From a virus (lineage: Duplodnaviria > Caudoviricetes), in IMG/VR virus record IMGVR_UViG_3300025098_000048, positions 1 to 56,991 of that record: a stretch of DNA of 56,991 nt; one strand, written 5' to 3'. The first letter of the stretch is position 1. Each line of letters opens with the position of its first letter. A program made the translations under genes and the position numbers. Positions 40,656 to 44,289 of this stretch are shown piece after piece. The notes under the pieces are model-generated. The model saw only the letters and a list, made by a program, of their open reading frames with translations. It did no database searches and was not told the DNA's origin.

Positions 40656-41024
40656 ATGTTTCCTGTATTTTTTGAAAACAGTAAAGTTCCTAAGGTTTTG
40701 AGCAAGGTTGCACCAATAGAAATAAATGCAATAACGCTTGGGCCTTTAGTTTTTAGTCGTGGTGAGTTATCTGATAAGGTTAAAAGGCACGAAACAATTC
40801 ACTGGATGCAATACAAAGAGCTTTTGATTATAGGCTTCTTGATTGTATATCTATATGATTATCTGTTTGCTGCTGTTTTAAAGAAAAAGGGCTTTAATAG
40901 GCAATCCTATTTAGCAATAAGATTTGAACAAGAAGCATACGATAATGATACTAACGAAAATTATTTAAAAGAAAGAAAACCATATAAGTGGTTAGATTAT
41001 CCACTCGGAGGAAACAATGAATAA
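40656..41024 (+). CDS. HEXXH zincin-like small protein
   Basis: AITLGP...RHETIHWMQ...IRFEQEAY. Confidence 0.7.
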   Translation: MFPVFFENSKVPKVLSKVAPIEINAITLGPLVFSRGELSDKVKRHETIHWMQYKELLIIGFLIVYLYDYLFAAVLKKKGFNRQSYLAIRFEQEAYDNDTNENYLKERKPYKWLDYPLGGNNE

Positions 41025-41295
41025 AGATAAAAAAACACTTTCACCAATGCAAAGCAAAAAGTTTTTAGCATATTTGTTTGCAGATATCGGATGGAAAGCT
41101 ATTATCCTATATCAGTTAATGCACCTTAAAGGAAAACTGGAGCTAAATGAGCTAACTTTTTTAATAACAACAGTAATAACAGCTGGTGTAATACAGATTG
41201 GTTATATATTAGGGCAAAATTCACTTGATAAATACTTGAGTTCAGCCGTAGAGATATTTGATAGAGACGATAAACCCCCAAAAAAAGAGGGGTAA
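41017..41295 (+). CDS. two-TM membrane protein, holin-like
   Basis: SKKFLAYLF...ITAGVIQIGYILGQ; charged C-terminus. Confidence 0.55.
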   Translation: MNKDKKTLSPMQSKKFLAYLFADIGWKAIILYQLMHLKGKLELNELTFLITTVITAGVIQIGYILGQNSLDKYLSSAVEIFDRDDKPPKKEG

Positions 41296-41296
41296 T

Positions 41297-41488
41297 ATGA
41301 TTTTTGATGAAAAAACAGTGTGTGCTCTCTGTAAAAAGATAGAGTGCCAATGCACATATTACAAATGCCCTTGTGGAAAGTTAGAAATAAACTGTAAATG
41401 GCCAGAAGATAGCTTTTGCCCTTGTAGAATATGTGATGAGTTAGCTCATAACTGCTCATGCCATAAACCTTTGGAGAAGAAAGAATGA
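41297..41488 (+). CDS. 63-aa Cys-rich peptide
   Basis: 12 Cys and 2 His in CxxC/CxC patterns; GAGGGG RBS; overlaps next start. Confidence 0.65.
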
Positions 41489-42186
41489 AAAAAGTTTTAT
41501 TATTCATATCTATTGTTTTTATTTACTGCTATATAAATCTGATTCAAATATTTCCAAGTTGGGCTCAAAGCTATGAATGTGATAACAACTTTGAAGATTG
41601 TGGAACACCTGAACAGAGTGGTGGTGGAGGCGGAGGAAAAGGCAGCGTTTTAATAGCAAATACAGATTTAGGTGATAGTTATCAACATGCAGATGATTAT
41701 GATGATGATGGCATTGAAGATCCATCTGATAACTGTATGAGAATGCCTAATCCACAACAACTTGATAGAGATGGAGATGGTGTAGGTGATGCTTGTGATA
41801 ACTGCCTATCAATACATAACCCCTATCAGCAAGATATGGATGGTGATATTTTAGGAGATTACTGTGATGATGATATTGATGGTGATACGTTATTAAACAG
41901 TGATGACGAATGCCCGTTTATGTATGGAAATAGTTATTGCTTTGAAGAGTTAAGCAGAGAGCATCCTCGTGATTCACAGCAAGCTATATGGATATCAGAT
42001 GAACAACCTTATAGCATAACAAGTAGGAATAAAAATCATACTAATGAGTTAGATGATAAAGAAGGCTGTAATCAAAGTTATAAAAAAGGAAGTGGGAATT
42101 GGTTATGGTGGGGTTTCTTTTTTTGGTTTATTTATTTATTCTTAAACTGGGAGAAGCCTAACAAAAACAACAAGAAAGATGATTAA
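41485..42186 (+). CDS. secreted thrombospondin type-3 repeat protein, myxobacterial MtsC-like, with C-terminal membrane anchor
   Basis: signal peptide; [73 protein letters not shown]. Confidence 0.8.
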
Positions 42187-42191
42187 ACATT

Positions 42192-43037
42192 ATGGAAGAA
42201 AACAACGTTGTTGAAGCTGAAATAGCTATTGTAATAACAGATATTATTGCGAGCACTCGTTTCGTTCAAAAGAACGGTAAATATGCTGCTGCACGTTGGT
42301 TTTCCACACACGATAAGCTCGTTATGAGTTTAATAACGAAACATAATGGGCAATGGTTAGATAACAGCGATGGCACTTTGATGTATTTTGGTAATGTGCC
42401 AGATGCTATTGCTTTTGCATTTGCTTATAAAAAGTTTTTAAGAGTTAAGAAGTTTCCTTTTAGGAGCAGGATTGGCATTCACTGGGAAAGTATGCTGATT
42501 GTTAAAACAGAACAAAGTATGATATCAGGAGGAGCTAAACGATTAGCTATCGAAGGTATAGGTAAAAACATAGCAGCAAGAACAATGAGTTTATGCGGAT
42601 CTGAGCAAATACTTTTATCACATTCAGCTTATACAATATTTAAAAGATACGGGCACAAAAACCCATTCATACCTAAAAATGCATTATCAGCACTTGTAGG
42701 ATTATACAAGTTTAAAGGTGTTTCTGAACCTGAGCGTATTTATGCTGTTGGCTTGATTACGGAACAAATGCAACCTCCACCCGATTCAGAGAAAGCAAAG
42801 AGGATTGGTGGTGCAAAGAAAATAAAAACAAGAATGAAACATAAACGATGGAGTGAAATATTTTTTTACTTTTTATATCGCATCGGCTTTATAATGTTTT
42901 GTTATTTGATATATACTTTCTGGCCTTTACTTTCAAATGGGCAAGCTAAAGCAAGTTGGAATATTGATTACCTCGTTTTACGACCATTTGAATATATAGA
43001 TTTACTAATATGTTTTATCAAGGATTTAATAAAATGA
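42192..43037 (+). CDS. class III nucleotide (adenylate/guanylate-type) cyclase with C-terminal TM
   Basis: IVITDIIASTRF, SDGTLMYF, RIGIH, GKNIAARTMSL..EQILLS, YKFKGVSEP. Confidence 0.88.
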   Translation: MEENNVVEAEIAIVITDIIASTRFVQKNGKYAAARWFSTHDKLVMSLITKHNGQWLDNSDGTLMYFGNVPDAIAFAFAYKKFLRVKKFPFRSRIGIHWESMLIVKTEQSMISGGAKRLAIEGIGKNIAARTMSLCGSEQILLSHSAYTIFKRYGHKNPFIPKNALSALVGLYKFKGVSEPERIYAVGLITEQMQPPPDSEKAKRIGGAKKIKTRMKHKRWSEIFFYFLYRIGFIMFCYLIYTFWPLLSNGQAKASWNIDYLVLRPFEYIDLLICFIKDLIK

Positions 43038-43165
43038 AAAACAGCAGCATTCTGGAATACATCTGGATTGGTTTTCTAATAAGTGTTATCTTAACACAGT
43101 TATATATTACAAGAATTGAAATGGATAAACCTTATGGGATTGAAAAAGCAGCCAGAAGGCGCTGA
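43034..43165 (+). CDS. 43-aa single-TM peptide coupled to the cyclase
   Basis: ATGA overlap with cyclase stop; MKNSSILEYIWIGFLISVILTQLYITRIEMDKPYGIEKAARRR. Confidence 0.45.
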   Translation: MKNSSILEYIWIGFLISVILTQLYITRIEMDKPYGIEKAARRR

Positions 43166-43601
43166 TAAAGAAGTCGTTCAACAGAAAAGAGAAACAAGAG
43201 GCTGGTTATTTAGCGTTGTTTTCTTATTTACAATAATAATGCTGATTATTTTTTTAGCGTTATTTGATTTTAAAGAGAGTAATCGTGAAGTTTTAATCGG
43301 GTTGTTTGGTATTTTATTTGGTAATATACCTTCGATGATTATCATTGCGAGTGGAAGAAGCCCTGAAGAAATAGATGAATTGAAATCTAAACTTTCAAAA
43401 AGTGATGGTGATAGGCAAGCTTTGATTGCAAGGCTTAGAGATTCACAAATACAACTTCAGTTAGCGCGTCAGCAAATGTTTGAGTTGCAAGATAGTGTTA
43501 TTAATGAACTTTCTATACTTAGAGGAAAAAATCCTATTAAGAGTAGAAACGAATCAGATGTAATACTGCCTGAAATAGTTGATGAATGGACGTTAAAATA
43601 A
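43134..43601 (+). CDS. two-TM plus coiled-coil membrane protein
   Basis: WLFSVVFLFTIIMLIIFLALF, VLIGLFGILFG; track start 43116 is TTG, ATG at 43134. Confidence 0.75.
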   Translation: MGLKKQPEGADKEVVQQKRETRGWLFSVVFLFTIIMLIIFLALFDFKESNREVLIGLFGILFGNIPSMIIIASGRSPEEIDELKSKLSKSDGDRQALIARLRDSQIQLQLARQQMFELQDSVINELSILRGKNPIKSRNESDVILPEIVDEWTLK

Positions 43602-43656
43602 ACATGTATATCTTAAGTTTTATAATAAAATAAAGAAATCTTGAAAGGATTTTAAA

Positions 43657-44070
43657 ATGAAAAAACTAATATTAACAGCACTAATGCTAATTTTGCCACT
43701 TGTTGGTTGTGAAAAAGATGAAGAAAAGAAATGTGATTGCGATGAATGCCCATGTGAGCAAATTCGTGATGCAGAGCCAGAAATGGAAGATGGTGATATG
43801 GGCCTGGAGGGTGGTGCAGAACAAGAAGATTTGCCGGCTGGAGGCCAAGATGCATCTGGTGGAATGGAGCAGGACGAAGAAGAAGAAGGTGGTGAGCAAA
43901 TGGAAGAGCCTGTATTGCCTGTTGCAGGTGAGATGATGCCAGAAGAGGATTGCGGAGAAATGCCTGAGGATGAAGAAATGTGTGTTCCTGAGATGATGCC
44001 TGAGGAAGATCCTGAAGAAGATGAAGTTGTTGATTGTGAATGTGAGAGCTCAGAAGATTGTGAGTGTTAA
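43657..44070 (+). CDS. acidic low-complexity lipoprotein
   Basis: MKKLILTALMLILPLVG-C lipobox; E/D-rich with Cys clusters. Confidence 0.75.
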   Translation: MKKLILTALMLILPLVGCEKDEEKKCDCDECPCEQIRDAEPEMEDGDMGLEGGAEQEDLPAGGQDASGGMEQDEEEEGGEQMEEPVLPVAGEMMPEEDCGEMPEDEEMCVPEMMPEEDPEEDEVVDCECESSEDCEC

Positions 44071-44239
44071 AACAGCATCAATAAACGAAGAAATAGAAAA
44101 GCTTATTTCTTTAATCTTAGATAGTGATTTATCTAATAAAATAAAAGATGAATCAATAGCTTTGTTAAGATATAACATCATAAAAGAACATCAAGTAAGA
44201 AGTTATAATGAAGGTGTTAGGCCAGATGGTTTAAACTAA
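44060..44239 (+). CDS. small hypothetical protein
   Basis: GTG start overlapping previous stop, in frame with track ORF 44021..44239. Confidence 0.45.
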   Translation: MSVKTASINEEIEKLISLILDSDLSNKIKDESIALLRYNIIKEHQVRSYNEGVRPDGLN

Positions 44240-44263
44240 CATAAACTTCGAAGCAGATACAAG

Positions 44264-44289
44264 AAAACCAGCGATAAGCTGGTTTTTTT
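44264..44289 (+). terminator. intrinsic terminator closing the accessory cassette
   Basis: AAAACCAGC-GATAA-GCTGGTTTT plus T tract. Confidence 0.8.

Follow-up and report, generated by a model that had tools for sequence, protein, structure and literature searches.

The question raised by positions 40656-44289 of the virus record IMGVR_UViG_3300025098_000048, whose 56,991 bases were analysed over their whole length and are referred to here as the window, is whether a tightly packed phage cassette of nine genes (A to I), one of which (E) encodes a class III nucleotide cyclase, constitutes a single signalling system. The initial annotation, made from the sequence without database searches, had read all nine genes as one circuit leading from a surface sensor to a cyclic nucleotide. 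By comparing the neighbourhoods of the cyclase gene among viral contigs, we found linkage for no more than two to four of the nine genes; the core of this linked set is the cyclase together with a small membrane protein gene, G, which follow one another in the window as below (TM, transmembrane; nt, nucleotides; aa, amino acids).

42192-43037, plus strand (E): class III cyclase domain followed by a C-terminal TM helix; begins after a 5-nt gap behind D
43134-43601, plus strand (G): protein with two TM helices and a coiled coil; alternative TTG start at 43116

Linkage was assessed in three sets of loci: a cyclase-centred set made of the best 80 of 293 viral stretches encoding E, whose six-frame open reading frames (ORFs) were searched with iterated profiles of the nine proteins; a G-centred set made of the best 80 of 298 viral stretches encoding G, in which E was sought within 3 kb; and a third set of 73 loci seeded from more distant short cyclases. 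G adjoins E in 79 of the 80 cyclase-centred loci, the sole miss (L047) ending 70 nt past E, and E is present in 78 of the 80 G-centred loci, both misses having an insert of 3.2-3.9 kb that places E beyond the 3-kb flank. The third set contains G in 70 of its 73 loci, the misses being one contig end and two members of another subfamily (L163 and L164). Where both genes occur in the G-centred set, G lies within 150 nt after E in 72 of 78 loci, its start often overlapping the stop of E; one locus has the reversed order, G then E. Ten contigs of large phages (L013, L016, L019, L021, L022, L024, L025, L029, L030 and L031) carry 1.2-3.9 kb of other genes between E and G, mostly on the opposite strand, and the junction of the two genes looks like an insertion hot spot.

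Clustering of neighbours and family scans placed the pair in at least three genomic contexts. It follows the tail-fibre genes in the window and its close relatives; it is divergent from B, another gene of the cassette, and stands beside a helicase and a NUDIX gene in a second group, whose contigs are estimated at only 9-20% of their genomes, which points to large genomes; and it lies between the large terminase and portal genes, after ThyX and the small terminase, in genomes of approximately 35-38 kb. The carriers include four records of 240-375 kb whose completeness is 95% or more, besides a complete genome of 37.8 kb with terminal repeats. E-G is an autonomous pair that moves between unrelated phage backbones, and the two genes alone are its minimal unit, since the 375-kb record has B 15 kb away from E and the complete 37.8-kb genome has no B.

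Searches of GenBank phages with E and with G (tblastn) yielded no match, and scans of 185,579 prokaryote genomes with the profiles of both proteins found no relative, these being exact pattern scans that distant cellular relatives could escape. The terminase of the small-genome carrier group has one weak match among GenBank phages. As far as these searches reach, the E-G pair is phage-specific, and it is widespread in marine viral contigs.

A deep branch of the short, TM-tailed cyclase clade (P0008-type; L163 and L164) is also viral and is without G. In these two loci, the gene of the cyclase-TM subfamily (L163:2690-3819 and L164:2648-3768) sits inside a baseplate module, between hub-like and gp25-like genes, and is accompanied by an ORF of 101-103 aa with one TM helix and a coiled coil, which abuts the start of the cyclase in L163 and stops 6 nt short of it in L164. 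Alignment of the L163 partner with the profile of G (hhalign) gave a probability of 9%, which amounts to no detectable homology, and the two are best described as analogous rather than detectably homologous. Given that an ORF without detectable homology stands in for G in these loci, a partner combining a TM segment with a coiled coil is recurrent with this type of cyclase.

Other genes, some of them envelope-type add-ons, were seen beside the pair in subsets of the loci. Directly upstream of E-G in L044, L046 and L051 is a minus-strand gene for a protein of approximately 226 aa with Cys/His motifs, by eye a CHAP or NlpC-type cell-wall hydrolase; near E-G in L011, L014, L016-L018, L021 and others (cluster 17) is a signal-peptide protein of approximately 250 aa that resembles an outer-membrane protein; and immediately upstream of E in L033, L058 and L065 (cluster 22) is a Cys-containing lipoprotein of approximately 70 aa. 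In eight small-genome loci (L054:3821-4531 and relatives; cluster 23), an ORF of approximately 236 aa with a DPPY motif, by eye a DNA methyltransferase, lies between the large terminase gene and E.

In the protein encoded by E, residues ~10-205 form the cyclase domain, after which come the conserved linker PPxxSEK, a basic segment, a TM helix (~220-248) and a short, poorly conserved tail, and by the positive-inside rule we infer that its catalytic domain is cytoplasmic. A full-library HMMER search returned 1,491 relatives at an expect value (E-value) ≤ 0.001. Two of these relatives that are ~40% identical to E (P0003 and P0004) pass the cut-off of PF00211 at 32.1 and 29.7 bits against a required 21.9, and the E family profile matches structures in the PDB, led by 1ybt (Rv1900c; 2.8e-19) and 4wp8 (3.9e-16; Ma1120, whose values range from about 1e-15 to 4e-16), with nine distinct chains at E-value ≤ 0.01. 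The AlphaFold2 (AF2) model of E (predicted local distance difference test, pLDDT, 85.2) gave 188 Foldseek matches at E-value ≤ 0.001, the top ones being 5d0e, 1ybt and 3r5g (Ma1120, Rv1900c and CyaB; E-values ~1e-12), with target template-modelling scores of 0.86-0.91 for Ma1120 and Rv1900c and 0.80-0.81 for CyaB. The class III nucleotide cyclase fold of E is confirmed by this agreement of family profile, model and structure search, and the assignment made in the initial annotation holds although E itself has no Pfam match.

E shares its fold with the bacterial class III cyclases Rv1900c (LipJ) of M. tuberculosis, Ma1120 of M. avium and CyaB of P. aeruginosa, and retains their pair of metal-binding Asp residues, their Asn/Arg pair and their C-terminal Lys-Gly; it differs from them in an identity of only ~22%, in the N-terminal position of its cyclase domain, which is followed by a TM helix, and in carrying an Asp where Rv1900c and Ma1120 have Asn and Lys, respectively. 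The 63 distinct phage sequences of E, which span 34-100% pairwise identity, all contain D17, D57, D60, R93, K116, K125, R130 and K175, and N126 is kept in 61 of them. Alignment to 1ybt and 4wp8, together with the known motifs of such enzymes, assigns D17 and D60 to metal binding, N126 and R130 to the transition state and K175 to phosphate binding, and judged by these residues E looks catalytically active. The differing Asp is D57, which aligns with the adenine-specifying Lys of Ma1120 and with the Asn of Rv1900c, and the alignments also show an insertion in E that separates the Asn/Arg helix from the conserved RIGIH strand.

The nearest cellular relatives of the domain, at 30-38% identity over residues 12-205 with the PPxxSEK linker included, are multidomain cyclases of approximately 400-1600 residues (mostly 700-1450), whereas E is short and TM-tailed. 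They include proteins of the NCBIfam family TIGR04510 ('putative peptide modification system cyclase'), a model that matches E at 6.6e-36 with 124.1 bits against a cut-off of 400 and only over model positions 7-204 of 814. A midpoint-rooted FastTree phylogeny of 175 catalytic domains, for which 30 phage sequences were combined with 145 relatives (of 150 listed, five matched fewer than 150 profile positions and were removed), joined the short TM-tailed cyclases (30 phage and 11 metagenomic) in one clade with a support of 0.998, apart from 129 long and five short forms. Viral contigs and unplaced metagenome proteins are the only known sources of E-type sequences.

G begins with a basic N-terminus, followed by two TM helices that are joined by a loop of ~8 residues and then by a helix of ~55 residues. 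The loop carries an NRD motif in which N and R are invariant and D is present in at least 90% of rows, and the core of the long helix, RLRDxQI, is invariant. The AF2 model (pLDDT 70) places helices at residues 17-49, 57-78 and 83-136. With its basic N-terminus, G probably has both termini inside, and its two TM helices would put the coiled coil in the cytoplasm. G is the more conserved of the two proteins, with a mean pairwise identity of 0.645 against 0.52 for E. Across pairs of loci, the identity values for E are correlated with those for G (r = 0.56, reached by none of 999 permutations), a correlation that shared ancestry alone could yield. The neighbours of G by language model (Atlas) are viral hypothetical clusters throughout. 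A complex prediction for E with G from 30-row alignments returned a score of 0.00 and a mark of 0.32, and was counted neither for nor against an association.

We propose that E and G come together in the inner membrane of the host as a split, receptor-like cyclase. The catalytic domain of E would face the cytoplasm, tethered by its single C-terminal TM helix, and G would form a two-TM hairpin that places its long conserved helix in the same compartment. G would contribute the TM and coiled-coil part that pairs the catalytic domains of receptor cyclases made in one piece; the active dimer of E would then make a 3',5'-cyclic mononucleotide (cNMP) during infection, which would most likely act on cNMP receptors of the host and reprogram the infected cell. 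Receptor-type class III cyclases made in one piece combine a TM anchor, a coiled-coil signalling helix and a catalytic domain. E-G shares with them the membrane anchor, the long coiled coil and the catalytic domain, and differs in being split between two polypeptides, in having the catalytic domain before the TM helix and in having no extracytoplasmic sensor domain; as hardly any periplasmic mass is predicted for E, G and B, the conserved unit appears to be without a surface sensor.

The suggestion that the signal most likely acts on host receptors follows from the apparent lack of one in the phages: the cNMP-binding family PF00027 was sought in the window and in five large carrier records, four of them at least 95% complete, and was found in none. 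The same search was positive in 11 of 14 control bacteria, and host cNMP receptors are accordingly common. We consider it likely that E-G is a functional cyclase module, and we assign a probability of about 0.45 to the fuller reading in which G acts as a regulator or scaffold and the signal is aimed at a receptor of the host.

Several observations weigh against this reading. The three sets of loci share contigs and near-duplicates and consist entirely of metagenomic contigs, the cyclase-centred set holding 60 distinct E-G pairs, and translational coupling of the two genes is not essential, in view of the 1.2-3.9 kb that lie between them in several large-phage contigs. E itself matches no Pfam family at E-value ≤ 0.1 and misses the gathering cut-off of PF00211, and the invariant D57 at the base-specifying position means that its nucleotide product is not predictable. 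Conservation is poor in its TM region, and this accords badly with a tight TM-TM complex. G has no confident match in Pfam, NCBIfam or PADLOC, where all scores are far below cut-off, and no relative in PHROG or the PDB. Lastly, the nearest cellular relatives of E are fused to NACHT, AAA_16 or nSTAND1 with TPR, or to Ser/Thr kinases.

These fusions lean toward the main alternative, a system like Pycsar or Pucsar, in which E would make a cNMP on cue (e.g., when a second phage injects its DNA) and G would be a receptor-effector without a cyclic-nucleotide-binding domain (CNBD) that perturbs the inner membrane; such a system could serve superinfection exclusion, the killing of competitors or the timing of lysis. 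A 2026 preprint (doi 10.64898/2026.08.12.744502) places STAND-fused cyclases in an immunity clade, assigns this architecture to conflict systems, and describes PycTM and PucTM as three-TM pJV1-spdB3 proteins with a cNMP-binding part that form hexamers. The initial annotation had drawn the Pycsar analogy, and one part of it stands: in E-G, too, the gene of a class III-type cyclase adjoins that of a small membrane protein, and the TM partner is dedicated, with near-perfect co-occurrence. With no phage-encoded cNMP-binding domain, G would also be the sole dedicated candidate receptor. The other part, that the partner is an effector of the known type, does not carry over to G, which has two TM helices and ~85 cytoplasmic residues that are predicted to be all-helical, contains no cNMP-binding domain, and is neither a CNBD-TIR protein nor a three-TM pJV1-spdB3 protein, the effectors by which Pycsar and Pucsar are recognised. 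PADLOC models do match E (PycC, 7.4e-05 with 20.3 bits, and 0.016) and G (PycTM, 0.013), but these matches are weak and limited to TM segments, and general class III cyclase matches are far stronger.

Four features lead us to prefer the split-receptor reading over a Pycsar-like one: E is itself membrane-anchored, unlike the soluble cyclases known from Pycsar; G is too small to accommodate any known fold for binding nucleotides; the sister subfamily has, in place of G, an unrelated protein with a TM segment and a coiled coil; and evolution has been slower in G than in the enzyme, whereas effectors of defence systems generally change quickly. Pycsar and Pucsar are, moreover, bacterial, whereas E-G occurs in ~300 viral stretches with a membrane-anchored cyclase, and the absence of relatives of E and G from the pattern scan of prokaryote genomes argues that the pair is not a recently borrowed bacterial defence gene. 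We regard a Pycsar-like function as possible but on the whole unlikely.

A bolder proposal goes further in the same direction and seems to us rather more doubtful still. E-G would be a second-messenger system exclusive to phages, and G a new kind of all-helical, non-CNBD membrane protein that responds to cyclic nucleotides and controls the membrane of the infected cell, whether for superinfection exclusion or as a nucleotide-gated lysis clock, in lytic marine phages of 38-375 kb.

It is improbable that E is a pseudo-enzyme, or an enzyme with a product other than a cNMP, and that E-G forms a structural or transport-related membrane complex. The missing Pfam match of E, the unusual invariant Asp at the base-specifying position and the insertion between the RIGIH strand and the Asn/Arg helix would be in keeping with such a role, but the conservation of the two metal-binding Asp, the Asn, the Arg and the Lys in 61-63 of the 63 sequences is hard to explain without catalysis.

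The remaining alternatives concern the other genes of the cassette and thus require its full layout. The nine ORFs and the terminator were located by the initial annotation where we found them, all nine being confirmed on the plus strand at 40656-44239 with overlaps or short gaps between them. Besides E and G, the cassette comprises the following features.

40656-41024, plus strand (A): 122-aa HExxH (HETIH) protein with one hydrophobic helix; accessory
41017-41295, plus strand (B): 92-aa protein with two predicted TM helices and a charged C-terminus; overlaps A by 8 nt
41297-41488, plus strand (C): 12-Cys peptide of 63 aa lacking a signal peptide; ORF listed from a TTG at 41258
41485-42186, plus strand (D): 233-aa secreted TSP3-repeat protein; ATGA overlap with C; accessory
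43034-43165, plus strand (F): 43-aa hydrophobic peptide; ATGA overlap with the stop of E, overlaps the start of G; accessory, doubtful
43657-44070, plus strand (H): very acidic lipoprotein with a lipobox ending in LVGC and Cys clusters at both ends; accessory
44021-44239, plus strand (I): small soluble protein, C-terminal half conserved; accessory
44261-44289, plus strand: terminator-like hairpin with a 12-pair stem, a 5-nt loop and a T run; closes the plus-strand gene run

The likely ATG of C is at 41297, one base past the stop of B, where it matches the orthologues. TM-like segments were found in A, B, D, E, F and G, and the domain assignments of the initial annotation were borne out for the HETIH motif of A, the 12 Cys of C, the TSP_3 repeats of D, the lipobox and acidity of H and the TM segments, as was its view that most products are envelope-associated, since seven of the nine look so.

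Two of these genes keep a looser company with the pair. B lies within 4.5 kb of E, on either strand, in 37 of the 80 cyclase-centred loci; its first TM segment is weak on the hydropathy scale, it has no confident match in Pfam, NCBIfam or PADLOC, with all scores far below cut-off, and no relative in PHROG or the PDB, and its Atlas neighbours are viral clusters only. Homologues of C are found directly upstream of E and on the same strand in 20 of the 80, and their family consensus keeps all 12 Cys positions. B and C may be frequent accessory subunits or regulators of E-G.

The co-occurrence of the cyclase, TSP3 and two-TM genes that the initial annotation had put forward as a check is therefore seen for the two-TM genes, G almost always and B in nearly half of the loci, and fails for the TSP3 gene, since D adjoins the cyclase in one locus of 80. 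D occurs in two of 15 E-G-carrying records and in one of the six that are at least 90% complete. It matches Pfam TSP_3 at 5.4e-14 (52 bits against a cut-off of 25), starts with a signal-like helix and ends in a hydrophobic tail rich in Trp. Its 336 metagenomic relatives of similar length at E-value ≤ 0.001 make up a large family that is separate from the cyclase. Residues 17-147 of D match the N-terminal 142 positions of the model for the myxobacterial cohesion protein MtsC (NCBIfam NF047638) at 1.9e-50, and D likewise has TSP_3 repeats; the match scores 172 bits against a cut-off of 350, however, and D has 233 aa against 428 model positions. The C-terminus of D (Gly-Cys, a Trp-rich hydrophobic stretch and a basic tail) resembles a C-terminal sorting signal, and D may be a clue to the host.

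A matches phrog_15610 ('protease') at 1e-23, finds no match in Pfam, NCBIfam or the PDB, and is present in none of the 80 cyclase-centred and none of the 80 G-centred loci. A homologue of F was found in one cyclase-centred locus (L001), with a diverged 31-aa ORF at the same place in L002; most loci have no room for F, given that G starts at the stop of E. H, in which 51 of 137 residues are Asp or Glu, has homologues in five of the 80, all of them window-like, and I in three (L002, L006 and L007). A, D, F, H and I are lineage-specific add-ons, mostly envelope proteins, in a shared insertion-tolerant spot, and the flagged cassette as a whole is a mosaic at the tail end of the late operon.

The late genes around the cassette are those of a contractile-tailed phage, as indicated by gene families for the tail sheath, baseplate (baseplate J and other baseplate proteins) and major head, besides the large terminase and portal, and the source is an uncultured marine myovirus of which approximately 40% is represented. 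Its capsid and terminase proteins reach at most ~24% identity with any of 50,697 GenBank phage records, and the DNA of the cassette has no match among GenBank phages (blastn). Cassette DNA is contained in marine and viral metagenome runs, including a 13,991-nt contig from a marine run, possibly the source of the record itself, that spans the block 39500-44800 with five differing letters. Upstream of the cassette are the last baseplate and tail-fibre-like genes (33982-40643), and downstream is a minus-strand group that includes an Amidase_2-like gene (46070-46846; E-value 1.7e-4, under the Pfam cut-off), whose product is a likely endolysin by sequence. This gene belongs to a minus-strand trio at 45176-46846, encoding proteins of 76 aa, 217 aa and 258 aa (the Amidase_2-like protein), that follows the cassette in window-like loci, with all three genes in L002, L003, L006, L007 and L023. 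Further downstream, at 48428-49723, is a PIN_4 and PhoH fusion protein (4.2e-27 and 4e-52). The 2-kb bins 18001-20000 and 26001-28000 of the window, in which the major head gene and the first part of a 735-aa structural gene lie, have a G+C content of 0.43-0.44 against ~0.35 elsewhere.

The cassette follows the tail genes and lies ~2 kb from the Amidase_2-like gene on the other strand, a position that would suit a lysis cassette in which the holin would be B, the two spanins G (inner membrane) and H (outer-membrane lipoprotein), and the cyclase either a passenger or a regulator of lysis. B is small, with two TM helices and a charged C-terminus as in a holin, G with its TM segments and coiled coil is followed in the window by the lipoprotein H, and the protein just upstream of E in L044, L046 and L051 resembles a hydrolase by eye. 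However, spanin pairs are by definition adjacent or nested, and an ORF with a lipobox is present in G or within 400 nt after it in only four of 80 scanned sources, the window among them; the two TM helices of G would moreover put its coiled coil in the cytoplasm rather than in the periplasm. In the complete 37.8-kb genome, E-G lies between the terminase and portal genes and 19 kb from an endolysin-like gene (phrog_21357, 5.4e-9), which is overlapped by a two-TM ORF of its own (89 aa), and B, absent from that genome, stands in another phage group beside helicase and NUDIX genes. No holin family of Pfam or PHROG matched B. G as part of a two-component spanin is largely refuted across its family, in which an adjacent lipoprotein gene is rare and two TM helices with a probably cytoplasmic coil replace the single TM helix and periplasmic coil of a spanin, and we consider the lysis explanation very improbable.

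The circuit of all nine genes, in which the TSP3 protein and the lipoprotein would sense the envelope, the cyclase would signal and the TM proteins would act, is hardly credible: the genes are co-directional, overlapping and closed by one terminator, their products look mostly envelope-associated, and the block recurs nearly unchanged in the marine-run contig, but five of the genes (A, D, F, H and I) fail to co-occur with the cyclase, D among them coming from a large independent family.

A cyclase has been reported in another setting of uncultured marine phages. According to a study of uncultured pelagiphages (PMC9599517), an adenylate cyclase occurs in their curli (type VIII secretion system) clusters and is discussed there as a regulator of a surface structure; it is like E in being a cyclase gene of uncultured marine phages. 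CsgG was sought in the window, in the five large carrier records and in 45 further carrier records, and none contained it above the cut-off. A link of E-G to the pelagiphage curli cluster was accordingly rejected for the carriers searched.

The literature searched, which lacked most subscription journals, yielded no account of a phage cyclase paired with a TM protein, and the core of E and its partner is undescribed as far as that literature goes. The tight packing of genes at the end of a late operon is, for its part, not evidence of a single system. Cyclic-nucleotide signalling in phage conflict has so far been known as a weapon of bacteria (CBASS, Pycsar and Pucsar), whose signals phages degrade or sponge; here it is the phage side that carries a cyclase of its own, apparently active, with one dedicated membrane partner. 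The pair is compact, at two genes and ~1.4 kb, and it is found in ~300 marine viral contigs over a tenfold range of genome sizes, in carriers without a cultured relative. The co-occurrence of E and G suggests an undescribed route by which phages raise a cyclic-nucleotide signal in infected cells, and if the pair makes a cNMP, it would be either a widespread device for host takeover in the ocean or a new type of phage-borne signalling-effector system.

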